DNA of 64,000 nt. Source: Stegostoma tigrinum (lineage: Eukaryota). Below the pieces are notes generated by a model. That model searched no databases, was not told the origin of the DNA, and was given only the letters and a program-made list of their open reading frames with translations. The position numbers were made by a program, and so were the translations under genes. Position 1 is the first letter of the stretch; every line of letters begins with the position of its first letter. Location: the NCBI RefSeq assembly GCF_030684315.1, contig NC_081370.1, positions 28,089,078-28,153,077 of the forward strand, read 5' to 3'. Of the stretch, positions 695 through 44,518 are shown piece by piece.

Positions 695-2241
695 AGATAG
701 CAGGAATTGCCAATGCTGGAGAATCTGAGATAACAAGGTGTAGAGCTGGATGAACACAGCAGGCCAAGCAGAATGAGAGGAGCAGGAAAACTGACATTTC
801 GGGTCAAGACCCTTCTTCAGAAGTGGGGGAGGGTAAGGGGATTCTGAAATAAATAGGGAGAGAGGGGGAGGTGGATAGAACATGGATAGAGGAGAAGATA
901 GGTGAAGTGGAGACAGACAGGTCAAAGAGGTTAGGTTGGAGCTAGTAAAGGTGAACATAGGTGGGGAGTTAGGGAGGGGATAGGTCAGTCCAGGGAGAAC
1001 GGACAGGTCAAGGAAGTGGGATGAGGTTAGTGGGTAGGAGATGGGGGTTGGGGCTTGAGGTTGGAGGAATGGTTAGGGAGGCGGGGACGAGCTGGGCTGG
1101 TTTTGGGATGCAGTCGGGGGAAGGGAGATTTTGAAGCTTGTGAAATCCACATTGATACCATTGGGCTGCAGGGTTCCCAAGCGAAATTTGAGATGCTGTT
1201 CCTGCAGCTTTCGGGAAGCATCATTGTGGCAATACAGGAGGCCCAGGATGGACATGTAGTCCAAGGAATGGGAGGGGGAATTGAAATGGTTCGCGACTAG
1301 GAGGTGTGGCTGCTTGTTGTGAACCGAGCGTGTTCTGCAAAACTGTCCCCAAGCCTCTGCTTGGTTTCCCCAATGTAGAGGAGGCCACAATGGGAACAGC
1401 TGATACAGTATATCGCATTAACAGATGTGTAGGTGAACATCTGTTTGATGTGGAAGCTCTTCTTGGGGCCTGGGATGGGGTTTAGGTTAGCGGTGTAGGG
1501 GCAGGTGTAGCCTTGCTGCAGTTGCAGGGAAAAGTCCTGAGGGTGGTGGGTCTGGAGGGCAGTGTGGAGCGGACAAGGGAGTCACGGAGTGGGTGGTTCC
1601 TCCGGTAGGCACATAAGGGTGGGGAGGGAAAAATGTCTTTGGTAGTGGGGTCAGATTGCAGATGGGAAGATTGTGTCAGGTTATGTCAGGTCAAGGAGAC
1701 GGGGATGAGAGGGAGGGTTGGTCATCGCTTGAGGCCAGCGGTGATAATATTTTGAAACTGGTAAAGTTCACATTGAGACCATTGGGTTGTAGGCTCCAAA
1801 GGTGGAATATGAGGTGCTGCTCTTTATTCGCCTAGGGAGTGGGAGGCTGGAAGGAGCAGCACCTCATATTCTGCCTTGGGAGCCTACAACCCAATGGCCT
1901 CAATGTGGTTTACTAGTTTCAAAATCTCCCCACCCCCAAACTCATCCCATTACCAACCCTCCCTCTTATCCCCGCCTCCTTGACCTGACACAACCTGCCT
2001 ATCTCTCCCACTTATCCACTCCTCCCACCTCACTGACCAATCCCCACCAGTGTTGAACTGCATATACCTACCACGATCCCAGCTACCTTCTCCAGTCCCA
2101 TCCCATCTCTATCTATTTATTTCTGAGCTCTCATGCCCTCCCCCATTTCTGAAGAAGAGTTCCAACCTGAAACATCAACTTTCCTGCTCCTTTGATGCTG
2201 CCTGGCCTGCTATGCTCCTCCAGCTCCACACTGTGTTATCC
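695..2241. mobile_element. Penelope-like element family A (Neptune-like), inverted/fold-back insertion
   Basis: Left arm (-) encodes the GIY-YIG C-terminus (LQEQHLKFRLGTLQPNGINVDF); right arm (+) from ~1845 carries the same 3' end (..GAGCAGCACCTCATATT..TGATGCTGCCTGGCCTGCT..TTATC). Confidence 0.85.
793..820 (-). ncRNA. Minimal hammerhead-ribozyme-like motif in PLE terminal repeat
   Basis: Reverse complement reads CTGAAGA-A-GGGTC-TT-GACCC-GAAA-T-GTC: hammerhead core boxes around a perfectly complementary stem II. Confidence 0.65.
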
Positions 2242-2383
2242 ATTACTTGCATTCTGCTCCTCTGGCTGCTTCACTTTATTATTACAAATCCAAACAATCT
2301 GCTCCCTACCATATATCTGGATTTATGAAATGCTTTTGCTCATTCCTGAAGTTATTACATTTTCTTATAATCCCAACTGAATT

Positions 2384-3357
2384 TGTTACTGGACAAGTCC
2401 GATCCTAGACTGAAATCCAGCTTGACATTTTATTTTGATTTTGGTTTGAACAAGGAGGTCTTTCACTGAAATCCAAATACACAACGCTACAGATTTGGGT
2501 TTAACAATAAAGCAGAAATTTATTAGCAAAAGAAATGAATATATTATAGAATAGATCAAACTATTCACATATAACACATTTAAAGATTTTGAAATATTTA
2601 TTAAAATATGATCCTATTCATTCCAACAATATTCCATTATTGTACTCAAACATTAGCAAGAATGTTCTTCATTATCTCACATAGAATTTAACTTTGCTGT
2701 GGCTTTGGTTCCCAGTCTGATGAGGTGATAACTTCTTCCTTGATTCATCATGCGTTTGAACTTAAATTTTCTCAGCTTCAAAAAATCCTGTTGGGTTTTA
2801 ACCAAACACTTCTGCTCTGAAACCTTTAAACTAAACTCCTCACACCAAGGTAATCTAATCTTTAAACAATTCTAAACTATCCTCTCCTTTTCTAAGAGAA
2901 ACTGCTTTATACAATCAGCTTCATCCAAGACTTATGCAGAGCTACCAAACTGAAACTATAAAAAAAAATTCTTCCTGAAACATCAGCTTTTGTGCTCCTA
3001 AGATGCTGCTTGGCCTGCTGTGTTCATTCAGCACCACACTTGGTTATTTATTTTCCCCAAGATACGTGTGTTTCCTCTTAGACTCCCCCTCCAAAAATTC
3101 CAGAATCTTCTAACTGAAAACTTGATCCAGTATTCTCTACTTCGTTTATGTGCAAATTCTCAGACTGTAAATAAATTCAAAATCTATCTCTCATGCTGTT
3201 TTATTAAACAAAAAATACTATGGCTACTGAAATAATGGCGTTAGTTATTAAATCAATTCATACATATCAAAAACCCCAATGCCACTAGTTCAAATTTAAA
3301 CATCTAAAATCAAAATAAGTAATCTCATGATATATAAAGTACACATTTTACATCACA
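2384..3357. repeat. Possible solo-LTR-like or unclassified repeat containing a short PLE tail fragment (~2975-3040)
   Basis: TGTTAC...CATCACA ends; PLE 3' tail text CCTGAAACATCAGCTTTTGTGCTCCTAAGATGCTGCTTGGCC is embedded. No TSD recognised. Confidence 0.25.
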
Positions 3358-3429
3358 ATATATACATAGGATGTCTGACAGAGTTCTGCACTTTTAAGCT
3401 GTATTGCTAAGTAGTAAATGATGGACATA

Positions 3430-13398: not shown

Positions 13399-13399
13399 T

Positions 13400-14595
13400 T
13401 AGATAACAAAGTGTGAAGCTGGATGAACACAGCAGGCCAAGCAGCATCTCAGGAGCACAAAAGCTGACGTTTCGGGCCTAGACCCTTCATCAGAGAGGGG
13501 GATGGGGAGAGGGTTCTGGAAGAAATAGGGAGAGAGGGGGAGGCGGACCAAAGATGGACAGAAAAGAAGACACGTGGAGAGGAGAGTATAGGTGAGGAGG
13601 TAGGGAGGGGATAGGTCAGTCCAGGGAAGATGGACAGGTCAAGGAGGTGGGATGAGGTTAGTAAGTAGGAAATGGACGTGCGGCTTGAGGTGGGAGGAAG
13701 GGATGGGTGAGAGGAAGAACAGGTTAGGGAGGCAGAGACAGGTTGGACTGGTTTTGGGATGCAGTGGGTGGAGGGGAAGAGCTGGGCTGATTGTGTGATG
13801 CACTGGGGGGAGGGGACGAACTGGGCTGGTTTTGGGATGCAGTGGGGGAAGGGGAGATTTTGCAGCTTGTGAAGTCCACATTGATACCATTGTGCTGCAG
13901 GGTTCCCAAGCGGAATATGAGTTGCTGTTCCAGCAACCTTTGGGTGGCATCATTGTGGCACTGCAGGAGGCCTATGATGGACATGTCGTCTAAAGAATGG
14001 GAGGGGTAGTTAAAATGGTTCACTGGGAGGTGCAGTTGTTTGTTGCGAACTGAGCGGAGGTGTTCTGCAAAGCGGTCCCCAAGCCTCCACTTGGTTTCCC
14101 CAATGTAGAGGAAGCCACACCGGGTACGATGGATACAGTATACCACATTGGCAGACGTGCAGGTGATCATCTGCTTAATATGGAAAGTCATCTTGGGGCC
14201 TGGGATGGGGGTGAGGGAGGAGGTGTGCGGGCAAGTGTAGCACTTCCTGCAGTTGCAGGAGGACGTGCCGGGTGTGGTGGGGAAGTTGTCCAAGTTCTTC
14301 AAGGATTGCAACTTTCCCCCCGCAGTGGTCGAGAATGCCCTTGACCGCGTCTCCCGCATTTCCCGCAACACATCCCTCACACCCCGCCCCCGCCACAACC
14401 GCCCCAAGAGGATCCCCCTCATTCTCACACACCACCCCACCAACCTCCGGATACAATGCATCATCCTCCGACACTTCCGCCGTCTACAATCCGACCCCAC
14501 CACCCAAGGCATTTTTCCATCCCCACCCTTGTCTGCCTTCCGGAGAGACCACTCTCTCCGTGACTCCCTTGTTTGCTCCACACTCCCCTCCAACG
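13400..14595. mobile_element. PLE family A with internal inversion (minus arm 13400-14275, plus piece ~14285-14595)
   Basis: Minus: CNCRKCYTC linker, NVVYCIH..CGFLYIGET..RFAEH GIY-YIG, LLEQQLIFRLGTLQ. Plus: FFKDCNFPPAVVENALDRV..RDHSLRDSLV. Confidence 0.9.
13466..13493 (-). ncRNA. Minimal hammerhead-ribozyme-like motif
   Basis: Reverse complement CTGATGA-A-GGGTCTAGGCCC-GAAA-C-GTC. Confidence 0.65.
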
Positions 14596-17029
14596 CCCCC
14601 CACCCCCTTTACGAACTGTATACTTTGTGTTTTAAACTTTCTGTTTAAATACAGTTATCATTTGGTATGTAATAGCTGTCAGGCTTCTGAAACTGAGGTT
14701 TCAATGTTTGAACCAGTCTGATGGCACCCTCCAATGACTTCCTGCAAAGATCTTAATGTGATGGTTTGGCTGTGCCCTCCAATAACCTCTCCAGAGATCT
14801 TTGGACAGGAAGGCCTAGATGAGACAACTCATTAGGGGAAAAAGAAGTGTGAGAGGAGGAATTGGAGGAGGATGGAATACTCTCAACAGAAAGGTAAATC
14901 TGCCACAGGATAAAATGGCCTCCTCCTGCTACCTGCCCAGGAAGAGAATATCCCTCCTCTCACTCATTGTCTCCAACATTAGATCCAGGTGAGTAATGAT
15001 AAAGTAAGAGATAGCTCTGCCACAGGTGTAAATCCTCTGGCTCCTCATGACATCTTGCATCCTTCTAATGAAGTGAAAACTTTGGCACAAACATCAACCA
15101 CAGTGATAGTGTTTATAGTGTTTCTGAATGAGTTCCACACTTCATGTAAACTCCATTTCCATGCCTTAGATCTATCTAAGTAGCAAACGTTTCACCATAT
15201 CAATTGTGGATTGATCACTGTAAACATGTCAGTGTTCGTCAGATTTCCACTAGCAGAGAGTTTCTGGCTGAAAAGGGGGCCAAGGTTTTGTGTTTCCCAC
15301 GTAATGGTGGAAATTCACCTCATGGAAATAACCAAAAAAACAGAAAGTTGGACATTTTTATTAACTTCATACTGAAATTTCTATGAAATAATCCATTTCT
15401 GGAGTGGTTTCTAATTTGTAGTCAGTGCAGTGTGAACAATTGCCAGTTATGCTGTTGCATCTGTTCTGTTCTTCACACTTAAGATTTATCTCACAGCACA
15501 CAAGCAGATCAGTTAGACTATGTGCGTGATATGTCGTATCACTAAATCAATTTGAGGATGATGTTCCTTTGGCTTTTTTCCCACATTGCTCTCATTTCAA
15601 GTCACCACTTTTAATCCGGTGAAGGAAATAAATAACTCACACAAATTTTCCTTTTAAAGTACCAGAGAAACATTAAATGATAAACAAATAGTTTCATCTC
15701 AGGATTGCTTCAGGCATTTTGAAAATATGACTTCATTTTCCATTTCAGAATATCTTGAATTTAAGATAAAATATTCATTTTACTTTAAATGCAGTGAAAT
15801 CAGAAAAATACATTAAACTAAATGTTATGTTTCCATCTAACTTTCATGTGATGTAAATTTTTTTATCAGTTACATGATAGAGTTGAATTTGAAAGTAACA
15901 ATGACACAAATTTAAAATGTAATGAATAGAAAATAATGACACTTTTTTGCATGACAGTTTTGCAGGTGCTTTGTAAAAAAAAATGTATAAATCGGACACA
16001 TGGTGGAAATAAATTGGTTCCATTCTCTCTCTTTATCAGAAAACAGCACTGTAAATGATCTAGTTTGAGTAGGTGCTTGTTAGAGGATCTGCTCTCTCAT
16101 CTCTCTAGAAGTGATAATGGCAACAAAATGTTCTGTTCCTTGAAGGAGCATATAATGAGATCTATTTTAAAGATTTAAAAAGTGAACATTTTTCCAGTCC
16201 ACACTTCAACTTCCTAGCCATCCATCGGAGTCACTGCACTTGGAAAACATTTCTACTGACACAGCATGCCATCCAATGGCTTAGTGGGGAACTACCGAAA
16301 TACAAAATTGGGAAACTAAATGGAATTTATTTTCAAAAGGAATAAGGATAGTTATAAACTAATTTGGACGCAGTACAAGAACATAAAGTCTGAAAAGTCA
16401 TTCCTTTGATACCACACAATCTGAATCACAAAATCTAACTATTTTGAAGAGTGATATATATACTCCCTCTTGCTCTGCTTGAAAGATTACTACAAAGTAA
16501 AATTCCTAAAATATAGATTGTATCACGGATCAGAGGTAGCACCTTTAAATTACCTCCCCAAGACAAATTCACTTTCTGAATTAATCTAATGGTGAAACAA
16601 AATTTAGTAATACAAAATGCCAACTCTTATTAACATGCGTCTCTTCTAAGACATGGTCTCTCATCAGCTTGAAGCTAAGCCGGCAGCGTGGCAATGGCTT
16701 TGGATTTTTAATAAATTCTTCTGACCAGTCTTCTTTGTTGTCCACTCCTCTTTTTACTACTTTTGCCCCTTCCCTTCTTCCATTACATTGTTCTTCTGTG
16801 ACTCTTTTTGTCAGAGTTGATGTCATTAATTCAAAAGTGTACTTTCCATCTCTTCATATTCCAAGTCCATTCATTTTCCTCCTCTTACTCCATTCCTTTA
16901 CATATACCCATTCTTCATCTTACATGTTGGTTGCATTCAATTTCTGAGTAAGCTTTGGTATAACTCTTTCAATTCAGGATTTATCTGTTGCATTTCAATT
17001 AAAGAATTTGGGCTAAGTATGTTGGCCTC

Positions 17030-20364: not shown

Positions 20365-22515
20365 ACGGTAGCTTTACTCAATGCAAGCTTCCTGAATTTG
20401 TGCAAGAGCTACGAGCTGCTGATATATTTGATAGGGTTTGTCCTCATGGCTCAATGCACCCATATGTCTATGGGCTGTGCAAGACAAAAAAGTGGTGCTG
20501 TCAAGTCTCACTGGGGTAACATGCTGGAAATCAATAAAGCCCTACTATTCTTGGTGTCATCATAAAAATTAAATATTTTGAAAAGTACCAAAGATGCCTC
20601 AATTTACCTGGTTTTTAGACCAAGGTTGACAGAAATCATAGAGCGGGTTTCTGAACTTAACAAAAATTACTATTTATTATAAGCAATTAGAATCATGCTA
20701 TAGGAAAATGGCTATGAACGATCAGCATTAAAGTTTACAAACTGAAACTATATTCCCTTACACACAAAAATTGGCAGATAGATAGATAGGGGGAAAGAGT
20801 GGGTTATGGATGAAGGTATTACTGGGTTTCATGGTCCCTGTTCACAGGATCTGTTGAGATGTGTCATACATTTCTTGAGCTGGTCAGACCACTGCTTCTT
20901 AGTTGTCTTTTGTTGGATGTTTTCACTGGTTTGCAAGAGGTACAAGATGACTGTTTCACTTATAAAAGGTTTCTGGTTTGTTAATTAAACATCACAGCTT
21001 ACACCAACTGCTGAAGGAAACATAAACTGGAATGAAAACAAATTTCTGGAGAAATTCAGCAGGGCTAGCAGCATCATTGGAAAGAAAGCAGAGTTAGTGT
21101 TAAATCTGGTGACTCTTCTTCAGAACCAGATTCAAAATGTTAACTCTGTTTTCTTTCCACAGATGCTGCCAGAACTGCTGAGTTTCTCCAGCAATTTCTG
21201 TTCTTGTTTCAGATCTCCAGTATCAGTAGTTCTGTTTTATTATGAAAGATAAACTGTTTTCCTTCAGGTTTAAATTGGCTTAATACACAGAACAGAGAGA
21301 GAGAGGTCTTGGCTGGTAGAGACCCTGGTGGCTTCTTTGTATCTTAATCCCAGACCCAAGCTGTTCAGTTACCTGAAAACCAAACACATGGCTGTTGGCA
21401 GGCAGAAGGGTTTTGTCATTGATAACTGGTCACTAGTCCAAAACCAACCAAAGTTCTAATTTTACAGAACACCTTGGCTCTAGTTAATCAGCAAACAATG
21501 CTACAGCCCCAGCTGTACGTAGTTCACACTGAGTATCACATTACTCACTTTCAATCCTTGGTTTTTAAAGCAGTTCATTTTTTATTTCAATCCACAATTA
21601 GGAAAATACAAGAAAAATCATGGTATGACTCTATGACTCTATGTTCCCTCACATCCTATCTTATCTACAACTAGGTCTGCACAATATGAACTAGCCAAAT
21701 GATTGAATGAATTGCTTTAACCAGTTTTCACAAGCTCATTGAAGGATTCCTTTTCATTTGCATAGACTATACAGAATTTGCATATGTATAGAAATACAGT
21801 GTACATGTGCTTATTTAAGATTACTAACCATTCAAAAGTGTACTTCTCAAGGAAGCCACAGATTTTTGTAATGGAGCACTATGTCAAGGCAATTTAGAAC
21901 GATCAGAATTGTGTGAATCAGTATTCAATGATCTCAAGAACTCAGCAACCAGTAATTAAGTTCAGTTTTAACATCACATTGGGCAAAATAAATAATATTG
22001 CTATGGGATGCCCTCTAGGCTGAGTTCTTGCAAACATCTTTGTTGGATTCCATCAGAAATGTGCCTTCAATACACTGATACTCAACTTCCTATCCTTGCA
22101 TATTTACAAGGCATAGATTTACTTTAACTGAAGTTATAAATAGATGCAAGAATTTTCTTTCATGTATTAACAGGCTCCATCGCACAATCAATCAAACTAG
22201 CTCCCTTTCCTTGATGTCCCAGCAGAGAAATCAGCCAGGGGCTCTTGAGCTTTGCATACCACAAGCCTACTTTTATTGGGCAATAAATGCGTTGGAATTC
22301 CTACAGTTCCACATACTACATTATCAGAACCTTCAACTAGGGCCTAAGCCACTTGTTCATCATGCAAGCTTAATGCTGAAATAGGATGCATCAAAGACAT
22401 CTTGCAGGATGATGCCTATTCTGATCAGATAATTTTTTGTTATACATCCTGTAAACTCACAAATGGTCTAACACTGTCACTTTTGGTCCTAGCATGTGTC
22501 CAATCTATCTCCATT
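20365..22515 (+). mobile_element. Old degenerate PLE reverse transcriptase, interrupted by ~20510-21630
   Basis: IFDRVCPHGS.HPYVYGLCKT (P..YGLPK motif) at ~20420-20485; IAMGCPLG*VLANIFVGFH (AMGSPLGP.LAN motif) at ~21995-22055; LPFLDV at ~22201. Confidence 0.65.
21035..21238. repeat. Short fold-back element from PLE family C terminal sequence
   Basis: TGGAGAAATTCAGCAGG..GCAGCATC..GAAAGCAGAGTTA mirrored by TAACTCTG..AGATGCTGCCAGAACTGCTGAGTTTCTCCAGC; same text at 12520-12610, 22520-22625 and 63345-63470. Confidence 0.7.
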
Positions 22516-24139
22516 TTAGATTAGAAACAGAAACAGAAATTACTGGAAAAACTCAGCAGATCTGGCAGCATCTGTGGACAGAAAGCAGAGTTAACATTTT
22601 GAAACTAGTGACCCTTGTTCAGACTCTTTCTAGATTTCATGAAAACCAGTTACTCATAATTGTATAAATAGAGTAACATTTCAGATTCTGTTATATGTCT
22701 CAACCTCCAGATCCAGACCTTATCCATAGATTTTAGCAGAGCATATATAGAACATTACAGCACAGTACAGGCCCTTCGGCCCTCAATGTTTTTAGTTTGG
22801 CTTTGATATTGTGCAAACTGTCCCATATACAGTTTTCCTTGACTTCCATGGACAGGCCTTACCCATAGTTTTTAATACAGACATATATTTTCAATTTGGC
22901 TTGAATACTATGCATAGATAATGTCCTGTTTATGGAAAGCTAAGTATCTATTTCTGTCTTATATTGGGTTTGAAATGCTCCTTCTGTTGTTTTCTTTTGT
23001 TTGAGTGGACTTATCCTTTCCCTACCTACCCTCTTTCTTCTTATGTGCAAATAAAATGCCTTGGAATTTTCCTTAATCCTGTTTGCCAAGAATATTTCTT
23101 AGCCCCTTATAGCCCTCCTAATCCCTTGCTTATGTTAATGTAGCATTTTTGTTTGATACTTAGAGGCTCAAAGTTGTGATATATGGATTATTAATCTTTA
23201 ACTGAACCAAGTGATTCAATACTTCGGACTTGCGCTCAAAAGAAAATACCTTGAGATGGGTTAAGATACAGTATTGTGAAATGGCTGCAGAAGCCACTTG
23301 ACCTACAAGAGTGGCCCAGTTTCAAAATACTTCTGAAATGGATTACCATGAAGCACAAGTGGCCAGTTCTCCTGCAGAATTTCACATGTCATTCAACAAC
23401 TGACATCTTGTCTGCAGAAACTACCAGACATACAAGGAAAACTACCAAATCCATCAGAATGCAAAAAAGGTCGCTAAAGACTCCCTTGTCAGTTTCATTG
23501 ATAGTTTTGAAAATGGATTGTTCATACAGACTGTCCCCATTGTATGCCAATAGTCAGCTATCACAAATGTGCCCTTGTAAAAAGCTATGATCATAAACTT
23601 GTCTGCTTGCTACAGAGAGCAATAAAATCAAAAAGGTCTGAAATATGGAATCGGAATAGCAGCTGTCCACATTCAGGCACCACGTTTTTTGCAAGATGGA
23701 TCAAAGAGAAAGAAGAATTAAATACCAAAGGAACTTCAACCATTATAGCAATAGTTCTGGAAAATGATGTTACTAGTTTAAAAGAGATGATCTTTGGAAC
23801 AACTGCAATTGGGCCATTACATTATTCCAAGCAGCGTCAGAACTTCAAGATTGCCAAATGAACCTCAAAGTGTGTTGTAGGATCTGTTTCACCCTTTTTA
23901 TAAGTTTATACTTTACTTGAATGAATTTACAATAAAACTAACTCTTTATTTTCATCAACTCAACATCTGTCTGCCTTATTTCTTCATATAACTTTGCATG
24001 TGGCCAAAGACATAATGAATTGAAGAAAGTCATATTTTTGAAATTCAAACTCATTAGTAGCCAAACTTAAGAGTGTTCGAGAGGAATTTATTCAATCTTC
24101 CAGACTTGGTTGTAACATTAGTTGAGGTAATATCTGCCA

Positions 24140-25650: not shown

Positions 25651-25682
25651 AAGGCCAGACGGCCTAATCTTGTTCCTATGAG

Positions 25683-27413
25683 TGATAATGGGAACTGCAG
25701 ATGCTGGAGAATCCAAGATAACAAAGTGTGGAGCTGGATATACACAGCAGGCTAAGTAGCATCTCAGGAGCTCAAAAGCTGACGTTTCAGGCCTAGACAC
25801 TTCATCAGAGAGGGGGATGGGGAGAGGGAACTGGAATAAATAGGGAGAGAGGGTGAGGCGGACCAAAGACGGAGAGAAAAGAAGATAGGTGGAGAGAGTA
25901 TAGGTGGGGAGGTAGGGAGGGGATAGGTCAGTCCAGGGAAGATGGACAGGTCAAGGAGGTGGGATGAGGTGGAAGGTAGGAAATGGAGGTGCGGCTTGAG
26001 GTGGGAGGAAGGGATGGGTGAGAGGAAGAACAGGTTAGGGAAGGAGAGACAGGCTGGGCTGGTTTGGGATGCAGTGGGGGAAGGGGAGATTTTGAAGCTT
26101 GTGAAGTCCACATTGATACCATTGGGCTGCAGGGTTCCCAAGCGGAATATGAGTTGCTGTTCTTGCAACCTTTGTGTGGCATCATTGTGGCACTGCAGGA
26201 GGCCCATGATGGACATGTCGTCTGAGGAATGGGAGGGGGAGCTGAAATAGCTCGCGACTGAGAGGTGCAGCTGTTTGTTGCGAACCGAGTGGACGTGTTC
26301 TGTAAAGCGGCCCCCAAGAATACTAGAATACACTTCCTCCCACCCACCCTCCTGCAAAAATTCCATCCCCTATCCCCAATTCCTCCGCCTCCACCCCAAT
26401 TGCTCCCAGGATGAGGCATTCCACTCCCGCACATCCCAGATGTCCACGTTCTTCAAGGACCGCTACTTTCCCCCTGCAGTGGTCGAGAACGCCCTTGACC
26501 GCGTCTCCTGCATTTCCCACAACACATCCCTCACACCCCGCTCCCGCCACAACCGCCCCCAGAGGATCCCCTTCGTTCTCACATACCACCCCACCAACCT
26601 CCAGACACAATGTATCATCCTCCGACACTTCCGCCATCTACAATCTGACTCCAACACCCGAGCTATTTTTCCATCCCCAACCTTGTCTGCCTTCTGGAGA
26701 GACCACTCTCTCTGCGACACCCAGATGTTCACCTGCACATCTGCCAATGTGGTATATTGTATCCATTGTATCCGGTGTGGCTTCCTCTACATTGGGGAAA
26801 CCAAGCGGAGGCTTGGGGACCGCTTTGCAGAACACCTCCGCTCGGTTCGTAACAAACAGCTGCACCTCCCAGTCGTGAGCCATTTCAGCTCCCCCTCCCA
26901 TTCCTCAGACGACATGTCCATCATGGGCCTCCTGCAGTGCCACAATGATGCCACACAAAGGTTGCTGGAACAGCAACTCATATTCCGCTTGGGAACCCTG
27001 CAGCCCGTTGGTATCAATGTGGACTTCACAAGCTTCAAAATCTCCCCTCCCCCCACTGCATCCCAAACCAGCCCAGCCTGTCTCTGCTTCCCTAACCTGT
27101 TCTTCCTCTCATCCATCCCTTCCTCCCACCTCAAGCCGCACCTCCATTTCCTACCTTCCACCTCATCCTGCCTCATTGACCTGTCCATCTTCCCTGGACT
27201 GACCTATCCCCTCCCTACCTCCTCACCTATACTCTCCTCTCCACCTATCTTGTTTTCTCTCCATCTTCGGTCCGCCTCCCCCCTCTCCCTATTTATTCCA
27301 GTTCCCTCTCCCCATCCCCCTCTCTGAAGGGTCTCGGCCCGAAACGTCAGCTTTTGTGCTCCTGAGATGCTGCTTGGCCTGCTGTGTTCATCCAGCTACA
27401 CACTTTGTAATCT
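25683..27413. mobile_element. PLE family A inverted insertion (minus arm 25683-26318, plus arm 26319-27413 with internal deletion)
   Basis: ORF 26275..27327 contains LEYTSSHP..NVVYCIHCIRCGFLYIGETKRRLGDRFAEH..LLEQQLIFRLGTLQP; arms are highly similar inverted copies; flanks TAATCTTGTTC at 25665-25675 and 27408-27418. Confidence 0.93.
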
Positions 27414-27429: not shown

Positions 27430-29130
27430 GGTCGTATGGAAATATTAGATGTAATGATAGTCATCTTCCAAAATTCTAGAGACGCTGGAGCAGATTTTAG
27501 AGACTGAAGAATGGTAAACGTAACCTTTCTTTTAAAAAGGAGTGAAAAAGAGAGAATTACAGACCACTTGTCTTACAGCAGCCGTGGGAAAACACCAAGA
27601 GTCCATTATTAAAGACATGATAACAGAGCATTTGGAACGCATTAATGGGATTAGACAATGCAAGCATGGGTTTATGAAAGGCAAATCATGCCTAAAAAAA
27701 TCTACTGGAGTTTTTTGACAATGTAACTAATAGAATAGAAAAGGGAAAACCAGGGTATGTGTATTTGGATTTTCAGAGGTTTTTGATAAATTTCCTTATA
27801 AGAGGTTAGTGAGCAAAATTAAAGCATATGAGATTGGGGGTAATATTGGGAGCATGGGCTGAGAATTGGTTGACACAGGACACAGAGTGGCAATAAATTG
27901 GTCTTTTCTACATGGTCGGCAGTGACTACTGGGGTACGACAAAGATGAGTAATTGGGCATCAGCTATTCATAACATATATGAATGACCTGGTTGAAAGAA
28001 CCACATGCAATATTTCCAAGTTTGCTGATGACACAAACTGGGTGGAATTGAGATAATAGGAACTGCAGATGCTGGAGAATCCAAGACAACAAGGTGGGGA
28101 GCTGGATGAACACAGCAGGCCAGGCAGCATCTTAGGAGCAGGAAAGCTGACATTTCAGGCCCAGATCCTTCATCAGAAAATCTGAAGGGTTTAGGCCCGA
28201 AATGTCAGCTTTCCTGCTCCTAAGATGCTGCTTGGCCTGCTGTGTTATCCAGCTCCACACCATGTTATTGTAGAATTGAGAGTTTTGACAATGCAGCAAA
28301 GAGGCTACATGGTGATTTAGACAAGTTGAGTGAATGGGTAAACATGTGGCATATTTGTACAACATGGGTAAATGTGAAGTCATACACTTTGGTGTGAAAA
28401 ATAGAAAGGCAAAGTATTATTTACACTGTAATATATTGGTAAAAGTGGATGCACAAAGGGATCTGAGTGTCCTTGTACCGAGTCATTGGAAGGAGACAGG
28501 CAGGTGCAAAAGCAATTAGAAAGGCAAATGATATATTGGCTTTCATTGCAAGAGCATTTAAATTACAAAGTAAGGATGCCTTACTGCATTTGTACAGGAC
28601 CTTGGTGAGACTACACCTGGAGTATTTTGTGCAGCTTTGATCTCTCAACCTAAGAAAGGATACCCTTATCATTGAAGGGAGTGCAGCAAACATTAACTAG
28701 GCTGAAACTGGGGATGGCAAGACTGTTGTATGATGGGAAACCGGTTTGACTGAGCCTGCATTCACCAGAGTTTGGAAGATCTGATTGAAAAGTATAAAAT
28801 TCTAACAGACCTGGGCAGACTAGATGCAGTCAGATTATTTTCCCTGATAGGAAGTGTGAACCAGGGATCACAGTCTTGGGACACGCAGTAGACTGTTTAG
28901 GATTGAAATAAGGAAAAAAATTTCTTTGCTCACAAGGTTGTGAATCTGGAACTTTTTAACCATGGAAGGCTGAGGAGGCCAAGTCAATATATTCAAGAAC
29001 GTTCTTTTTTTACATAAGAGACATTAAAAGCATTTAATGAGAAAGTGGGAACGTAGACTGAGATAGATGCTCAGCATGATTGTAATGAATGGCAGGGTAG
29101 GTTCAAAAACTTCAATGCTCCTGGTTTCTA
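27430..29130 (+). mobile_element. Degenerate CR1 RT to 3' end, interrupted by the mini-PLE at 28053
   Basis: HGFMKGKSCL..LLEFF, ISKFADDTKLGG, NMGKCEVIHFG, LYRTLVRLHLEY. Confidence 0.85.
28053..28269. repeat. Mini fold-back element made of two PLE 3' termini
   Basis: ~90 bp inverted arms meeting at ..CATCAGAAAATCTGAAGG..; TSD GTGGAATTGAGA / GTAGAATTGAGA (28042-28053, 28270-28281). Confidence 0.88.
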
Positions 29131-29952: not shown

Positions 29953-30186
29953 TCAGCGATAGTAGGAACTGCACATGCTGGAGAATCTGAGATGACAAGG
30001 TGTAGAGTTGGATGAACACAGCAGGCCAAGCAGCATCAGAGGTGCAGGAAGGCTGACATTTCGGGTCTGGACCTTTCTTCAGAAATGCAATTCTGAAGAA
30101 GGATCTAGGCCCGAAACATCAGCTTTCCTGCTCCTCTGATGCTGCTTGGCCTACTGTGTTCATCCAACTCTACACCTTGTTATCCC
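29953..30186. repeat. Mini fold-back element made of two PLE 3' termini, in the TMEM9B promoter region
   Basis: ~95 bp inverted arms around ..TTCAGAA-ATGCA-ATTCTGAA..; perfect 18 bp TSD TATAAATGAAAATAGGCT at 29935-29952 and 30187-30204. Confidence 0.92.
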
Positions 30187-30204: not shown

Positions 30205-30800
30205 CCGATTGCTGAAAACTTATGCGGCGCTGACTCTAATAACAATGCGAACATAAACTGGTGTAAACTAAAACAGCGAAAACTCATTCTTCCTTTTGTC
30301 TCACCTTTAACAATAAAGAAGAGATAAAAATAAAAAAATAGGCAGTACATGTTCTTGAAGACAAAATGCTGTCCGGTCTTCCCTCCTCAGACACACCGAC
30401 GGACTAGGCCTCAGGCATTGATCTCGTACTCGCCAGTCGGTTACCAGGGAAACGCTGTCTCCAGGAGAGGGAGCCCCGACAACGAGGAAGGGAGCGCTGG
30501 GTGGTGAGATGGCGGGCGCTTGTGGCTGTAGTATTGTTCTGTCCCTCTGGTTGCTGCTGTGTCTGCTTGTGCTGGCGAGGAGCGAGGAGAACAAGGTACG
30601 AAGGAATGAGTGAGGAAGCTGACCGCTGATGGATGTACCAGCGGCGCTGAACCGGGAAAATAGTCCTCTGCTGCTAAACGGAGGGTCGGTGGCCTCAGGC
30701 CCAAGTCATCAAGGGTTCATACACAGTGTGAACGGGTGATGAGTGGAGGCGGAACCCACACGTTTGGTCACTAACGGTGCTAGTCTGTGTAATTTACCAT
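30205..30800 (+). promoter_or_regulatory. CpG-enriched promoter / first-exon region of TMEM9B
   Basis: Local rise in CpG and GC content in non-repeat DNA around the ATG at 30509; the TSS cannot be determined from sequence. Confidence 0.7.
30509..30595 (+). CDS. TMEM9B: TMEM9B coding exon 1 (signal peptide MAGACGCSIVLSLWLLLCLLVLARSEENK)
   Basis: ATG in strong Kozak context (GAGATGG), hydrophobic signal peptide, phase-0 donor AAG|GTACGA joining in frame to NFED. Confidence 0.85.
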
Positions 30801-33990: not shown

Positions 33991-34216
33991 AGTCATGATG
34001 AAGATAAACAAGCACAGTAATATTTTTCCTTTCACTTCCTAGTTTGTAATTTATCTAGCTAATTTCCGATTTGCTTTATTAGTGTTAGCTTTTGGTTCAA
34101 TGATAAATTTTTAAATTCCTAATTGCAATTAATTTTAAAGACTTGACCGATCAATTATTAATAATTATTTTGCACTTGTTTAGATAGGCACCAAGCAGCT
34201 TTATTTTCTTCATGAG

Positions 34217-36699
34217 AGATAGTAGGAACTGCCGATGCTGGAGTCTGAGGTAACAAGGTATGGAGCAGGATGAACACAGCAGGCCAGGCAGCATTAGGGG
34301 AGCAGGAAAGCTGACGTTCCAGATCTGGACCCTTCTTCAGAATTGAGGGATAGGAAGGGAGCTCTGAAATAAATAGAGAAAGGGGGAGGTAATGATAGAA
34401 GGTGGATAGTAGAGCAGATAGGTGGAGAGAAGACAGACAGGTCAAAGAGGCAGGGATGAAGCCAGTACAGGTGAGTGTAGATAGAGAGTTGGGATGGGGA
34501 TTGGTCAGTGAGGAGGGAGGGATGGGTAAGCGGGAGGGAAGACAAACAGGTCAAGGAGTTGGGGATGAGGCTATTTGGTAGGATGTCGGAGGTGGGAGGA
34601 GTGGATAGGTGGGAGAAAAGACAGACAGGTTAAGGAGGCAGGGATGAGAGGGGGCGCTGGTCTAGGGATGAGGTCGGGGGTGGGGAGATTTTGAAGCTTG
34701 TAAAATCCACATTGAGACCATTGGGCTGCAGGGTTCCCAGGTGGAATATGAGGTGCTGTTCTTCCAGCCTTCGGGTGGCATCGTTGTGGCACTGGAGGAG
34801 GCCCAGGATGGACATGTCATCCAAGCAGATGAGGCAAAGAAATTGGGTAAAGAGGAGAGCATTTTTGCAGGAAGGTGAGTGAGAGGAGGTGTATTCCAGG
34901 TAGTTGTGGGAGTCAGTGGGCTTGAAATAGATATCAGTTTCCAGTCGGTTACCAGAGATGGAGACAGAGAGGTCCAGGAAGGGGAGAGAGGTATCAGAGA
35001 TGGTCCAGGTGAACTTGAGGTTGGGGTGGAAGGTGTTAGTAAAGTGGATGAGCTGTTCGAGCTCCTCGTAGGAGCACAAGGCAACGCCGGCACAGTTATC
35101 GATGTAACGGAGGAAGAGGTGGGGGATAGTGCCAGTGTAGCTGCAGAAGAGGGACTGTTCCACGTATCCTACAAAGAGGCAGGCAAATCTTGGGGCCATG
35201 CGGGTACCCATGGCCACCCCTTCATCTGTAGGATGTGGGAGGAGTTGAAGGAGATGTCGTTAAGAGTAAGGACAAGTTCGGTTAGGCAGATAAGGGTGTT
35301 GGTAGAGGGGGACTGGTGGGCCTGCGGGAGAGGAAGAAGCGGAGAGCTTTTATGCCTGGGGAATGCAGGTGTAAAGGGACTGGACATCCATGGTGAAGAT
35401 GAGGTGTTGAGGGCCAGGGAATCGGAGGTTTTGGAGGAGGTGGAGGCTATGGGTGGTGTCAAGGACGTAGGTGGGGAGTTCCTGGACCCCGGGGGGAGAA
35501 AATGGAGTTGAGATAAGTGGAGATAGGTTTGGTGGGGCAGGAGCAGGCAGAGACAATTCCCAATTCCTTTGCTTCTGCTGCATCTGCTCCCAAGATGAGG
35601 CGTTCCACTCCCAGACATCCCGGATGTCCTCGTTTTTCAAGCACCGCAATTTCCCCTCCACAGTGGTCGAAAACGCCCTCATCCACATCTCGTGTGTCTC
35701 TCACAGCTCAGCCCTCACACCCCTTCCCTGCAATAACAAGACAGAATTCCCCTTGTTGTCACATATCACCCCCATCAACATCTGGATTCACCACATCATT
35801 TTCCACCACCTGCAATCTGACCCCACTACCAAGGATATATTTCCATCTCCACCCTTATCTGCCTTCCAGAGGGACCGCGCTCTCTGTGACTCCCTCGACC
35901 ACTCCACACTCCCCACTAGTGAACCATCCCTGGCACTTTTCCCTGCAACCGCAGGACGTGCAACACCTGCCCCTATACCAACCCCTCACCTCCATCCCTA
36001 GCCCCAAGAAAACCTTCCACACCTAAACAGATGTTCACTTGCACACCTGCTGATGTGGTATATTGTATCCGCTGTTCCTGATGTGGCCTCCTCTACGTCA
36101 GGGAAACCAAGCAGAGGCTTGGAGACCGCTTTGTGGAGCACCTGTGCCCAGTTCGTGACAAACAACCACACCTCCCAGTCGCGAACCACTTCAACTCCCC
36201 CTCCCACTCCTTAAATGACACGTCCATCCGGGGCCGCCTCCAGTGTCATGATGATGCATGAAGGCTGGAGGAACCGCGCCTCATATTCCACCTGGGAACC
36301 CTGCAGCCCAATGGTCTCAACGTGGACTTTACCAGCTTCAAAATCTCCCCACCCCCGACCTCATCCCAAGACCAGCACTGCCTCTTGGCCCTGCCTCCTG
36401 TCTGTCTTTTCTCCCACCTATCCACTCCTCCCACTTGACTGACCAATCTCCATCCCAACTCTCTACCTACACTCACCTGTACTAGCTTCAGCCCTGCCTC
36501 CTTGACCTGTCTGTCTTCTCTCCACCTTTCTGCTCTACTATCCACCTTCTATCATCGCCTCCCCCTCTCCCTATTTATTTCAGAGCCCCCTTCCCCTCCC
36601 CCATTTCTGAAGATGGGTCCAGACCCGAAACGTCAGCTTTCCTGCTCCTCTGATGCTGCCTGGCGACCTGTGTTCATCCAGTTCCACACCTTGTTATCT
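34217..36699. mobile_element. PLE family A, largest inverted copy, with RT core
   Basis: Minus arm: IFTMDVQSLYTCIP, AMGTRMAP, LRYIDN (YIDD site), LPFLDL, YFKPTDSH. Plus arm 35557-36699: linker, GIY-YIG and 3' end. TSD CTTTATTTTC(T/C)TCATG at 34199-34214 and 36700-36715. Confidence 0.94.
36607..36634 (+). ncRNA. Minimal hammerhead-ribozyme-like motif
   Basis: CTGAAGA-T-GGGTC-CA-GACCC-GAAA-C-GTC. Confidence 0.65.
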
Positions 36700-39600
36700 C
36701 TTTATTTTCCTCATGCCTTTCTGCATTGTGCAACAGGTATAGAGCTGATAATGATTGAAAAAAAACAGAATGTTTCGGAAAATGTTGCTGTCTGTAGTTT
36801 TTTTCCCCTTGTCTCATTGGTGCCTCAGAATCTGAGGAGTTTAACAATTTACTGGGAATTTATTACTGAGGTTGTAAGAATATAATTAAGTGATCTGATT
36901 GCATAGCACCCTTTTCTGAACAGACAGACGGTATTGTGTATGGCATGCATTAACTTCAGATTGAATTCCAAATTGGTTGTTTGCACCCTGTGTTTATCCA
37001 GTCTGTCCACCTGAAATAGGCATTTGACTCATTGACTCTTCTGTCTTTGAAGTTGAAATTCATCTTTTGCTTCTCTCATTCTATCTCAAATCACTTCATT
37101 TGTAGCTGAATTCTATTCAGCTTGAACTGTGTTCTACTCGAGGTAGACACCTTTTCTTACAATTTCAGACATGGTGTTCTTACTTGAAATATATTTGCTT
37201 TCTTAGTCATAGCTTTTAGTTCTACGTCCAATTTTTTTTACTAATAGCATGGCCTCAGAAAATGTTTGCAAGTCATTCGGATAAATCTTCGCTTTCCAGA
37301 AAAATCATAGCAACTAAGAGCCATTTTGATTTTCAATATGTATCGTAGAATTCACCATGGAAATCATGAATCAGCCTCAATGTCAGTAAGTCACAGTATT
37401 CATATTTGTTTGTGGATTTTAAATTCTATAAGAATTCCCAAATTAGGTAATGATCCCAGACTCGGCCTCCAAATTGTGTTACAATTCAAGGTGAGCCCCC
37501 AAATTATGTTATGATCTCAGACCTGATTACAGACTTTATGATCTAAGACAGATACCCAAATTATGTTGTTACAGTCTGGTCAGAGACCTTTTATGTTTAA
37601 AGGGAGATGCAAGTTGAGATACTAGGAACTTTTTAAGAGAATAGACCCACATCGTCTGAACAACCAACAATACATTTAGTATTCAAGTTAGAACAATAAT
37701 GTAACCTACAGTACCTCTGAAACTCACTTAAATTTATTTATTTAGCTCAGAATTAACATGGGTAATGTACTGAAATTGAACACCTCAACATGCATAAATT
37801 AGAAAATATGGTGGTCAGTAAAGAAACTCAGCAACTCCCCCAGATGTCAATGATACAGAAGGTATTTCGGTAAACTTCACAAGAGATTAGAATTCCTCAC
37901 TTGCCAATCTGGCCTTGAAACTCTGTCTCAAACCAATCAGTCAAAGGTAGCCTCAACAACTCCTGTTCTGACTGATTACATTCCTTTCCTGGGTCTATGC
38001 TCCCTCAGAGTCCACAGACTACACTTCAGTACCTATTCAAAGTCACAACTCCAACATTTTGCTGACTGCTTACTTAACCAAATTAGATATATGTCCTACT
38101 GTGTTAACCAGGCTGCACTGCAACGTCTACTTATAGGCGCGACCGTTTTCTGAGCTATAATCTTGCTGGGGTGTATGAAACAAATACTGCTGCGGTTTTT
38201 CAACTCCCACTCTTGGTCATATTATCAGTGGCACCCTGCTTTTTCTATGCCATCTCAATTTCCAGTCTTTTCTTTTGCCCTAACTGTAGCACAACTGTAT
38301 AATAACTCCTAGAATGCAGCCTGAGTTCTAACAGCACTGAGATATCTAACTGCTCTTGGAACTTAATTCACGGTGTCCTTTACGTGGAACCCACATGATT
38401 CAAATGCTTCATATACAATTCAGCTAAAAATCAACAATTCTGATATCAAGCCCATCCTCTGACTCCATAACATATTACTCACCTTTGTCCACTGATTTAT
38501 CTTTTTATAGCTATTCAGTTACCCCTGAAATGATCCGAGTGACCTGTTGGAAACCTTGCAACAATCCCTTCCCCTGTTGCTGATCTGAATTGAATGTTGG
38601 TACCTCGCAATTTTTGGAACTTCCTGTTCCATAAATATTATCCGTCATCGACAGCTGGTTTACTCAGTCCAAAAAAAAGATATAACTAGAGCATTTCATT
38701 ACAATCCCTAAGTGAAACTCCAATTCCACATCCCTTCTACATCACAAAAAGTACTTGTTTCCGCACCTGTAACGTTATCCATTTCAGTCTGTCTCCTGCT
38801 AAGATTCTCATTCAGACCTTTGACAACTCCAAATTCAAGTATTCTTGTGGTCTCCTGGTCAGCCCTGTCTTCGCCCTTCTTAAATTGCAGACTTTATCTT
38901 AACCTATAATAATAATTCTCACCTATCAAGTTCTGATGACTCACTAAAATTGGAATTCTGCGAGATAATGCATTCACGTCTCACTCATGTATTTTAATCG
39001 TTTCAGCCTTTGTAATATCCTCTAAATGAACTGTAACAAAAAAAATCAGGCCTGCAAAGAAGTGAATGTTTGTGTACAAAATGGACAAACTTCCATGAGG
39101 AGGAAAGAAATGGCCTCTAAATCTAGAACGAGATAGATGACTTAAGGGGTAGCAATTAAAAAGAAACAGAAAAATAGGCATATGATCAATATTCTTAATA
39201 CAGCAGAGAATCAGACTGCATTTTAAAAAAAAGTGCAGCAGAAAACTTAAAAATGAGAGAATTGGAGTTAGTATCTGAGAACAGATAGATAGACAGGTAA
39301 CCTGAAAAGGAAATCCTGGGGTTTCATGAAAATGTAAATAGTAAAACTACAATTGATTAGGGACTAAAGTGGTGATTTTTAAAATATAGTTAAAAAGAGG
39401 CCCTGACTGAGGAATGAAATTAGATCTTTGCAGTGTTTTCACCTTAAAAAGGATGCTGCAAGTATCTAAGTAAGGTGGTTGTGAAGAAATAGGATAGGAT
39501 ACAAGTAGAGAGCAACAATCCACAGAAAAGTCACACAGCTGAGGAATGTGTGAGGGAAGCGAGGGTGAACATCAAACAGCCTGCATCCACCATCTTCCAA

Positions 39601-39766: not shown

Positions 39767-40385
39767 GTGTATTGCAAAGGTAACCAGACCAAGGCCTCCA
39801 CAATCAAGAGATTGTAAATGAAAGTTTAATTCCTGAGAATAGCTGCAGCTGAGGAAGGTACTCTGTATGACCAGCTTGTGGGGTTCCTAGAGAAGTAACA
39901 ACCACTGTCAAATGTCTTTCTGCTGAAGGTAAATAGGGGTCCGTTCAGTTATAGGACCCTTGTAGCAGCTCAAATGTATGTAAGTTTGGTATTGTATGTG
40001 TAAGGGAGGTCTTTGGTCTTTTGAATAGAGTCAAACTACAGTGTTTCATTTTGTTTCTTTGAGGCACAGAACCAAACTGCATTTGTGACTGTATACATAC
40101 ATTATTCATAATAAATATCTTTGTATATTTTTGAAACAAAAAAATGTAAAATGAAAGATTGATGTGACTTAAGAGAATTCTTGGGTACTTAAGAAATAAA
40201 CCTGACTGCATAAAAATATGGCTTACATCCGAGTATGTAAAGTTAATGCTCATTCTATTTCTTCGCTACATGGTTAAGTTTGATTTGTTTACCACATGAA
40301 ATCTAGTGGCATAGATCTCTTGGTTTAAAAGGATTGTTCGGTTTTGTTTTTAAAAATATTAGTGATTTCTAATGGGATCGTAACA
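39767..40385 (+). repeat. Possible solo LTR
   Basis: TG start, internal AATAAA, and ..GGGATCGTAACA end typical of Gypsy-type LTRs; no TSD seen. Confidence 0.35.
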
Positions 40386-40469
40386 CTTTCTAAAGGGAAT
40401 TGAAGAAACACTCAAAAAAGAAAAGTTTACAGGCCCATGAGGAAAGAGTAGGGAATGAGGCTATTGCTA

Positions 40470-41460: not shown

Positions 41461-41842
41461 TTTTCCCTTCCTTCTTGTTCTATTTCCCAGAGAGCAGGAG
41501 TATAATCATTTTTCTTTATTGAAGACTCCTCTTAAGCTTTTCTGAAGGGCTATGTTTTATTCTTATTAAATCATTTATAAGGCACGGCTGACACAACAAT
41601 GCCTTCAGTATTTGTGTAGAATTACAGGGTATTTGGACTCTCACGAGCAGTATTAGAATAACCAATAATATCCTCAATTACCTAGCGTCCATCAAACTTA
41701 TACCCACATTTTGAAGGGAAAAGATGAATTTCTTAGACGCCACAATATTAAAATTTTAAAAGATAACAGGCATGATTAATAAAACATTTTTTTCCAAAAT
41801 AATGATGCACACTTCTATATTTGAAAAGCCATCACCCTAAAT

Positions 41843-42155
41843 GGGCAGCACGGTGGCTCAGTGGTTAGCACTGCAGCCTCACGGCGCCAGGGACCTGGGT
41901 TCGATTCTACCCTCGGGTGACTGTGTGGAGTTTGCACATTCTCCCCGTGTCTGCTTGGGTTTCCTTTGGGTGCTCCAGTTTCTTCTCACAGTCCAAAGAT
42001 GTCCTGGCTAGGTGGATTGGCCATGCTAAATTGCCACAGTGTTCAGGAGTATGTGGGTTATAGGGGGATGGGTCTGGGTGGGATACTCCAAGGGTCGGTG
42101 TGGACTTGTTGGGCCAAAGGGCCTGTTTCCACACTGTAGGGATTCTATGATTCTA
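41843..42155 (+). mobile_element. HE1-type tRNA-derived SINE (V-SINE)
   Basis: A box TGGCTCAGTGG, B box GGTTCGATTC, V-domain TGTGGAGTTTGCACATTCTCCCCGTGTCTGC, CR1-like tail GGGCCTGTTTCCACACTGTAGGGATTCTATGATTCTA. Confidence 0.9.
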
Positions 42156-42414
42156 AAGACATCTTCTGCAGTTTGATCAGGTCACTGCAAATGCATTTCC
42201 ATCACACGTGTACAAAGACAGAACATTTTAACCAAGCAGTTATAACCCTGTTCACTGCATCTGAGATCTCACTTTTGGATTTTAAATTTAACAACTGAAT
42301 ATGTGTTTATTTCAACGGGATCCAATACAGCTTTTCCAAGTATAGTAACTCCTGAACTTATAATGTCCTGAATTAGACATTCCACATTCATTCTCAGTAA
42401 CTTGAATTTTTCAG

Positions 42415-44518
42415 TTGTGGAGGGGTGCTTTTCTGACCGGAGGTCTGTAACCACTGGTGTTCCGTGACAATCAGAGCTGGGACCTCTGTTTCTATTATAT
42501 ATAAACGATTTGGATGAAAATGTCAGTCTGCTTAGTAAGTTTGCAGATAAAACAAAAATTCATGGAGTTGCAGATTGTAAAGAAGGATATCAAAAGATAC
42601 AGCAGGATATAAAAACTAGAGAGTGGGTGGAGAAATGGTAGATGGGTTAGGGATAGGCTTAGTTTAATCCAGACAAGTGATAGGTGATGCATTGGAAGAT
42701 CAAATGCAAGAGAAAAGTATACTGTCATTGGTTAAATTCTGAGTGGTATTAATTTACAGAGAGATCTTGGAGTCCAGGTCTATAGCTCCCAAAAGTGGCA
42801 ACACAATTGGACAATGTGGTAAAAAAGTCACACAACATGTTCGCTTTCATTGGCCAAGGCATTGTGTTTAAAAGTTGGCAAGTCATGTTGCAAATGTGCA
42901 AGAATTTGGTCAGGCCATATTTGAAGTATTTGCACAACCTTGGTCACTGCACTATAGGAAGGATGTAGAGGCTTTGGAGAGAGTGCAAAAGAGGTTTACC
43001 AGGATGTTAGATAATAAAATGTGAGGCTGGATGAACACAGCAGGCCCAGCAGCATCTCAGGAGCACAAAAGCTGACGTTTCGGGCCTAGACCCTTCATCA
43101 GAGAGGGGGATGGGGTGAGAGTTCTGGAATAAATAGGGAGAGAGGGGGAGGCGGACCGAAGATGGAGAGAAAAGAAGATAGGTGGAGAGGAGAGTATAGT
43201 TGGGGAGGTGGGGAGGGGATAGGTCAGTCCAGGGAAGATGGACAGGTCAAGGAGGTGGGATGAGGTTAGTAGGTAGGAGATGGAAGTGCGGCTTGGGGTG
43301 GGAGGAAGAGATGGGTGAGAGGAAGAACAGGTTAGGGAGACAGAGACAGGCTGGACTGGTTTTGGGATGCAGTGGGTGGAGGGGAAGAGCTTTGCAATAA
43401 ACAACTGCACCTCCCAGTTGCGAACCATTTCCACTCCCCCTCCCATTCTTTAGATGACATGTCCATCATGGGCCTCCTGCAGTGCCACAATGATGCCACC
43501 TGAAGGTTGCAGGAACAGCAACTCATATTCCGCTTGGGAACCCTGCAGCCCAATGGTATCAATGTGGACGTCACCAGCTTCAAAATCTCCCCTTCCCCCA
43601 CCGCATCCCAAAACCAGCCCAGTTCTTCCCCTCCCCCCACTGCACCACACAACCAGCCCAGCTCTTCCCCTCCACCCACTGCATCCCAAAACCAGTCCAG
43701 CCTGTCTCTGCCTCCCTAACCTGTTCTTCCTCTCACCCATCTCTTCCTCCCACCCCAAGCCGCACCTCCATCTCCTACCTACTAACCTCATCCCACCTCC
43801 TTGACCTGTCCGTCTTCCCTGGACTGACCTATCCCCTCCCTACCTCCCCACCTATACTCTCCTCTCCACCTATCTTCTTTTCTCTCCATCTTCGGTCCGC
43901 CTCCCCCTCTCTCCCTATTTATTCCAGAACCCTCATCCCATCCCCCTCTCTGATGAAGGATCTAGGCCCGAAATGTCAGCTTTTGTGCTCCTGAGATGCT
44001 GCTGGGCCTGCTGTGTTCATCCAGCCTCACATTTTATTATCCTGGATTCTCCAGCATCTGCAGTTCGCATAATCACCTTTACCAGGATGTTGCCTGATTT
44101 GGAGTGTATTAGCTATAATCAAAGGTTGGACAAACTCGGATTGTTATTGAGGTAGGCTGAAGGGTGACCTGGTAAAAGTATGTAAGATCATGAGGGGCAT
44201 GGATAGTCACAGTCTCTTTCCCAGGGTGGAAATATCAAATAATAGAGGTCATACGTTTATGGTGAGAGAGGGAAGAGATGTGTAAGGAATTTTTTTTTAA
44301 CATTGAGGGCAGTAGATGCCTGGAATGCTGTCTTGGGAGAAGTGGCAAAAACAGATGTTTAAGAGGCATTTAGCAGACACACAAAAAGGCAGAGGACAAA
44401 GGAAGACTGACCCTATACAGGCAGGTGAGATTAGTTTCGTATAGCATTGTCGTCAGCACAGTCATCGTGGGCCAAAGGTCCTGTTCCTTTGCTGTACTGT
44501 TCTTTATCTTTTGTTCTA
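42415..44518 (+). mobile_element. CR1 3' half split by a PLE insertion
   Basis: YINDLD..SKFADK..ALERVQKRFTRM resumes after the PLE as FTRMLPDLE. Confidence 0.85.
43009..44077. mobile_element. PLE family A inverted insertion nested in CR1
   Basis: Minus arm 43009-43391, plus arm 43392-44077; perfect 14 bp TSD TTTACCAGGATGTT at 42995-43008 and 44078-44091; hammerhead-like motifs at 43074-43101(-) and 43950-43977(+). Confidence 0.94.

Follow-up and report, generated by a model that had tools for sequence, protein, structure and literature searches.

Minimal type I hammerhead motifs in the termini of a Penelope-like element family of the shark Stegostoma tigrinum

Minimal hammerhead ribozymes (min-HHRs) were described in 2014 in the pseudo-long terminal repeats (pLTRs) of metazoan Penelope-like elements (PLEs) (Cervera & De la Pena, PMC4209133). 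An extra base and a palindrome are general in the min-HHR consensus, and Culex, Drosophila virilis, and Oikopleura provide examples of a helix I of 2 bp (PMC4209133 Fig. S3). The role of PLE hammerheads in vivo is stated to be unclear (PMC8557442), and no reads ending at the cut site are given for PAc, a Poseidon element of Anolis and the one PLE studied biochemically (Frangieh et al. 2024, PMC11167929). We analyzed a 64,000-nucleotide stretch of the Stegostoma tigrinum genome (contig NC_081370.1, positions 28,089,078 to 28,153,077; hereafter the window, numbered from its first letter), in which an original prediction, made from the letters alone, had placed about 13 such motifs in the termini of one PLE family, family A. 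Judged from their sequence, these 13 motifs are a known signature of PLEs, carried mostly on decayed end-pieces. They add carpet sharks to the motif class known since 2014 and show a variant of the pLTR-open reading frame (ORF) junction in which the motif is located in a leader. The portion of Fig. S3 examined holds no shark row, and supplement file 2 of the same article gives no match to "shark" or "Callorhinchus" (PMC4209133).

All 13 motifs were found where they had been predicted and on the predicted strands. The predicted letter pattern is matched within ≤3 mismatches by 10 of the 13 sites, four of them exactly (shuffled controls, 0/100). A structure descriptor requiring a perfect core recovered four sites (793-, 13466-, 36607+, and 43074-) and none in 20 shuffles; with one core mismatch allowed, it recovered six, against a shuffle mean of 1.45. 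Searching the window with a profile brought the family A ends to 14, by one at 2974, and gave five matches of lower strength in a related second family, family B. In family A the motif runs CUGA(U/A)GA, one extra base, stem II, GAAA, CGU, C17, and helix I. Stem II has 4 bp and a 4-nucleotide (nt) loop, not the predicted 5 bp and 2-nt tip, and what had been read as variation of the hairpin tip with pairing kept is loop variation together with a one-sided U-A/U.G change at 10.4-11.4. This is the sole pair-preserving change between subfamilies, and no two-sided compensatory change was found in the family A stem II. Published min-HHRs and family A have in common the CUGANGA box with its extra nucleotide, G10.1-C11.1, GAAA, a palindromic 15.2-16.2, no helix III, a U-rich 5' flank, opposite-strand pairs in truncated elements, and a mostly dispersed arrangement; with 4 bp in stem II and 2 bp in helix I, family A falls at the lower end of the published lengths (PMC4209133). 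The extra nucleotide between A9 and 10.1, likened in the prediction to viroid and satellite-RNA hammerheads, is indeed present, but it belongs to the published PLE consensus itself. The long helix I with loop contacts of the canonical type I hammerhead in Rfam is absent from family A, and an Rfam search of the window returned no hammerhead family at E ≤ 1. The predicted class, that of minimal type I hammerheads in a shark PLE family, agrees with the published consensus, with the GIY-YIG and reverse transcriptase (RT) pieces in the arms, and with the carpet-shark relatives of their proteins.

What state are the copies in? All 11 core letters are kept in 10 of the 13 copies and C17 in every one; the copies at 27324 and 28182 each lack 3 nt of the core, and 34313- carries A13G. 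The 10.1-11.1 pair is G-C in eight copies, G.U through a CpG change in four, and A.C in one. The palindrome ACGT (15.1-16.1 region) survives in six, with CpG transitions in the remaining seven, and no helix III is formed. Helix I has 2 bp in 12/13 copies, as predicted, and its third pair never forms. Core, stem II, ACGT, and 2-bp helix I are kept together in only three copies (13466-, 36607+, and 43074-), which bears out the earlier remark that several copies are decayed. Across the 13 copies, CpG columns were changed in 11/52 cells versus 11/286 in the flank (P = 8e-5), and non-CpG core positions in 1/126 (0.8%) versus the same flank (3.8%; P = 0.12); the flank count excludes six subfamily-diagnostic columns (39/351 with them), and deleted positions are uncounted. 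In a public sequencing run, X9, aligned at 85% likeness and possibly not independent of the window's source, G12>A reached 13.5% and C11.1>T, at its CpG partner, 14.5% (depth weighted, among 40 of 77 difference rows). The excess in CpG columns and these rates fit a neutral, CpG-led decay of the window copies after insertion.

The arms of family A contain RT pieces, a CX2CxxC zinc linker, and GIY-YIG; in copy E13 (copies are listed in Table 1), the linker (CX2-5CxxC) precedes the C-terminal GIY-YIG. The Pfam match to GIY-YIG is at the cutoff in E26 and below it in E13. A zinc linker combined with GIY-YIG is the mark of Neptune/Nematis (PMC8557442). The closest relative is a Stegostoma protein (69%), and the named relatives come from Stegostoma, Rhincodon, Hemiscyllium, and Chiloscyllium. 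In the insertions, 3' pieces are accompanied by an inverted copy with a truncated 5' end. Described Neptune/Nematis elements (Craig et al. 2021, PMC8557442; Arkhipova et al. 2013, PMC3846280) share with family A the CX2-5CxxC linker, the C-terminal GIY-YIG, partial tandems, the inverted 5'-truncated copy, a tail at one end, and target duplications. Terminal direct repeats of 11-18 nt flank four of the five closed two-armed insertions (one repeat overlaps the element end) and are weak at E28, whereas 8-10 bp is given for the rotifer examples; also unlike the described Neptune/Nematis elements, family A includes very short head-to-head copies starting at the ribozyme 5' edge. Non-LTR retrozymes likewise carry a type I hammerhead of PLE origin (PMC7229834; Li et al. 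bioRxiv 10.64898/2026.07.22.740005), and hammerhead retrozymes are reported in the one chondrichthyan sampled by Li et al. Retrozymes form head-to-tail tandem arrays, whereas the copies of family A, dispersed or inverted, are linked to pieces of the ORF; in the window, no head-to-tail neighboring units on one strand were found, the pairs being inverted.

At E1, the motif sits in the pLTR, between the end of GIY-YIG and the start of the next ORF, as the minus arm continues beyond the long end into the N terminus of that ORF (a partial tandem). This N terminus matched a full-length relative of 889 aa at E = 1.4e-4 in the window search and E = 1e-7 in a pairwise comparison. A search without a profile yielded 28 relatives, and in nine of these the alignment begins at their own residue 1, opposite Met 654; the five homologues viewed all start at the equivalent of this Met, and the four that were looked up belong to the four genera named above. 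This evidence for the start codon is good but not final, as gene callers choose the first ATG. With this start, the predicted cut lies 139 nt upstream of the start codon, in a leader of 138 nt. A conserved ATG 19 nt past the cut was rejected as the start codon: the homologues start 139 nt past the cut, and a stop lies between in E1. Open frames that cross the motif (also P0001) probably reflect a composition rich in pyrimidines.

Where do the copies end relative to the putative cut? Each of the five closed two-armed insertions has an arm that stops 64 nt past it and an arm that stops ∼99 nt past it, leaving a 35-nt tail on one side (in E43, cut at 43977/43978, short end at 44041, and long end at ∼44076); one long-end and one short-end arm per insertion are also described in PMC8557442 and PMC11167929. 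The predicted cut site is spanned by all 14 family A ends, which means that none of their templates had been cut at this point. PAc resembles family A in its hammerhead at the pLTR-ORF junction, its unprocessed RNA template, and its two ends ∼35 nt apart downstream of the hammerhead (PMC11167929). It differs in that its ORF starts at stem II and reverse transcription starts inside the ORF, whereas in family A the cut and both ends lie in the leader before the Met and the linker is of the Neptune type. By analogy, the parent element would carry its ribozyme in the pLTR, with the cut 139 nt before the ORF. Cleavage of its tandem transcript would likely be slow and rely on dimer formation or on assistance by the element's protein (PMC4209133, PMC6765202). 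Reverse transcription would have two starting points, located 64 and 99 nt beyond the cut, and, as in PAc, would copy backwards through the uncut ribozyme (PMC11167929). Two start sites and copying through the uncut ribozyme would account for a motif at every end and for a 35-nt tail on one arm.

Two further families in the window carry the motif. Family B, a second Neptune-type family, and a third, Penelope/Poseidon-like family have the same core boxes as family A; helix I reads GTT/AAC and GCA/TGC, respectively, and stem II differs. MAFFT misaligned the motifs of the three families. The five copies are all decayed and were aligned by eye; in this alignment, the helices differ among the families yet still pair. 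The original prediction had proposed comparing core boxes with flanking repeat across families, and the result, identical boxes with different helices in three families, is in its favor: recurrence of this kind favors a real motif. Pattern scans of metagenome contigs, viral contigs, and prokaryote genomes returned no copies. We also observed that the third family is represented by two opposed Poseidon-like remnants (48700-50800), each with its own decayed hammerhead.

On balance, we consider it highly probable that these motifs represent a shark PLE's minimal type I hammerhead, placed in the pLTR, with a parent that cuts its tandem transcript slowly and copies in the window that are passive. 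Several observations weigh against this. By nearest-neighbor energies, the preferred fold of the monomer is an inactive hairpin in which the core is paired to the region of the cut (-11.4 kcal/mol, 81% of the ensemble), and the active dimer is predicted at -5.5 versus -38.0 for the best dimer, in an energy model without tertiary contacts or protein. Published min-HHRs cut weakly (PMC4209133), and PAc transposes in vitro without cleavage (PMC11167929). Non-CpG core positions tend to be better conserved than the flank, so that weak selection on the copies is possible. Finally, the assignment of family A to the Neptune-type, endonuclease-bearing (EN+) PLEs is a reading of the linker motif rather than of a tree. 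The copy at 36607, whose surroundings (36590-36660) had been put forward for a cleavage assay, is a poor choice, as it is predicted to misfold through a competing hairpin (stem II probability, 0.02-0.11).

Alternatively, the motif may be a hammerhead-derived RNA signal that no longer cleaves, a protein-binding or folding element beside the RT start sites whose catalysis was lost in family A. Its 2-bp helix I would compete with a predicted inactive pairing of 6 bp, and the 14/14 ends come from uncut templates. Added to this are PAc, with its cleavage-free transposition and no reads ending at the cut site (PMC11167929), and the Naiad PLEs, which proliferate without canonical hammerheads (PMC8557442). 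However, the catalytic core letters are invariant in the consensus of the family and are seen again in three families whose stems differ, the PAc motif does cleave when protein is present (PMC11167929), and some junctions in run X9 fall at the exact cut site. We regard a purely noncleaving signal as unlikely.

The X9 junctions themselves raise the question of whether cleavage in vivo has left a trace in the genome. Twelve of 93 joints with inserted letters were listed, selected by the tool and without joint type; three of these 12 join element ends at 44041, 44046, and 44070 to 43978, the first base past GUC, one goes to 43977, and two go to 43946. With a uniform distribution over 100 positions as a crude null, 3/12 has P = 2e-4, and 2/12, counting two rows as one lineage, has P = 6e-3. 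In such a reading, RT would have run off a self-cleaved 5' end and then switched templates. Since the inactive hairpin is predicted to end at 43979, a pause of RT there would leave nearly the same mark as cleavage. No pile of loose ends at 43978 appeared among the 24 of 943 X9 rows listed, and no copy in the window starts at the first base past the cut.

A second accumulation lies at the 5' edge of the ribozyme. In run X9, 377 contigs with unlike flanks start at 43949, one base before the core, a pile second only to that at the short end (752) among the six rows listed. Starts within ∼5 nt of the core are found in the window in E28, E30, and two family B copies (28177-28181, 30083-30092, 21124-21126, and 22623). 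They may mark a transcript start, a barrier to RT, or a short nonautonomous subfamily. Fold-back of the cDNA at this edge was rejected, since the antisense DNA folds no better than shuffles. Three sequencing runs guessed to be RNA yielded contigs that align to the stretch, with no pile of begins or ends reported and no spliced joint among the 15 of 67 listed; contigs are uninformative on transcription, strand, and ends. It is doubtful, though somewhat less so than a noncleaving signal, that the shark genome holds a fossil record of PLE hammerhead cutting in vivo, legible in ends joined directly past GUC, with the 5'-edge hotspot as a transcript start or a folded-ribozyme barrier. If true, whether and when PLE hammerheads cleave would become countable from DNA alone, and this very high-copy family supplies the statistics with which to test the junction signal. 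We found no paper on shark PLE hammerheads, cut-site truncations, or core-edge starts in literature whose coverage left subscription journals and Repbase outside.

Could the copies serve the gene in which they lie? As predicted, the plus-strand copies 36607 and 43950 lie in sense in intron 1 (30597-45591) of a TMEM9-family gene whose exons we located, putatively the B paralog, TMEM9B. These two sense copies, the E30 palindrome ∼325 nt upstream of the host ATG beside a CpG-rich promoter region, and the retention of all core letters by 36607 are what co-option to regulate the gene, for example by cutting its pre-mRNA, would build on. Against it, both sense copies are predicted to be sequestered by their own preceding antisense arms (24/28 nt paired for 36607 and 27/28 nt for 43950), stem II and palindrome are broken in 43950, and the two lie 7.3 kb apart. 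The family is moreover very abundant, with 149,798 X9 contigs aligned on 401 nt (a measure of abundance, not a copy number), so intronic copies are expected by chance. No sign of co-option was seen in the window copies, which likely do nothing for the host gene; we consider co-option very improbable.

Chance resemblance to a hammerhead is a negligible prospect: although Rfam gives no hammerhead match and the fold z-scores of the motif are near zero, perfect-core matches are absent from the shuffles, the motif agrees with features that the published descriptor does not require, and its correct position in the PLE together with its independent recurrence in two other families excludes this reading.

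Table 1. Coordinates of the element copies, hammerhead ribozymes (HHRs), and gene parts located in the window
Feature	Position	Strand	Remarks
Next PLE ORF, N terminus	322..654	-	Start Met 654, stop 321; homology extends further
E1 main arm	693..1665	-	Linker/GIY-YIG end, pyrimidine-rich pLTR, HHR, leader
E1 HHR	793..820	-	Core and stem II intact, palindrome lost by CpG change; pLTR/ORF junction of partial tandem
E1 inverted 5'-truncated arm	1844..2240	+	Decayed HHR 2149-2176; short end
Solo family A end	2974..3050	+	Absent from original prediction; begins inside stem II
E13	13399..14605	-	Zinc linker and GIY-YIG; intact HHR 13466-13493; short end
Family B short head-to-head palindrome	21034..21236		Decayed HHR starts 21123(-)
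Family B HHR, short copy	22593..22622	-	Decayed
E26, two-armed	25680..27413		HHRs 25781-25808(-), decayed, and 27324-27348(+), without 3 core nt; 11-nt direct repeat at ends
E28, short head-to-head palindrome	28050..28268		HHRs 28149-28176(-) and 28182-28206(+); arms start 0-5 nt upstream of core or inside it
E30, short head-to-head palindrome	29955..30184		230 nt; HHRs 30055-30082(-) and 30093-30120(+); 18-nt target duplication
TMEM9-family gene, likely coding part of exon 1	30510..30596	+	Signal-peptide-like; ends at GT
E34, two-armed	34213..36700		RT pieces; HHRs 34313-34340(-), A13G, and 36607-36634(+), intact, predicted misfolded
E43, youngest	43007..44076		Arms 147/151 identical; 14-nt target duplication; HHRs 43074-43101(-), intact, and 43950-43977(+), decayed
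TMEM9-family gene, exon 2	45592..45683	+	
Third family (Penelope/Poseidon-like) HHR	48800..48833	-	Decayed; longer stem II, different helix I
Third family, second HHR	50708..50740	+	Decayed
TMEM9-family gene, exon 3	60294..60402	+	Pfam Tmemb_9 E = 1e-11; PDB TMEM9 E = 2e-16
Family B (second Neptune-type) HHR	63440..63469	-	Decayed; GIY-YIG remnant 63742-63998

Rfam matches to miRNAs in the window were rejected: they are inverted PLE arms, with scores far below gathering. Decayed RT-bearing fragments resembling long interspersed nuclear elements (LINEs) lie at 7100-8900, 17900-20400 (Pfam RVT_1, 18606-19319), 33500-33900, and 61660-63200, and E43 is inserted into a LINE-like repeat. Tandem duplications of 39 nt follow directly on the GIY-YIG end in a younger subfamily of family A (13722-13855 and 43588-43700). 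The PLE ORF N terminus (1-654, minus strand) passes into a Thr/Ala/Pro-rich low-complexity stretch, which is also seen in shark database proteins, some of them labeled mucin-2-like; P0014, a gene model for a whale shark acid phosphatase, terminates in this PLE segment. Leader introns are known in PLEs. In family A, ∼25 nt before the core, a tract of pyrimidines that ends in YAG (∼43905-43925 and equivalents) resembles a candidate 3' splice site; in family B, a candidate splice-like tract of the same kind lies ∼12 nt upstream of the core (63485-63500, minus strand).

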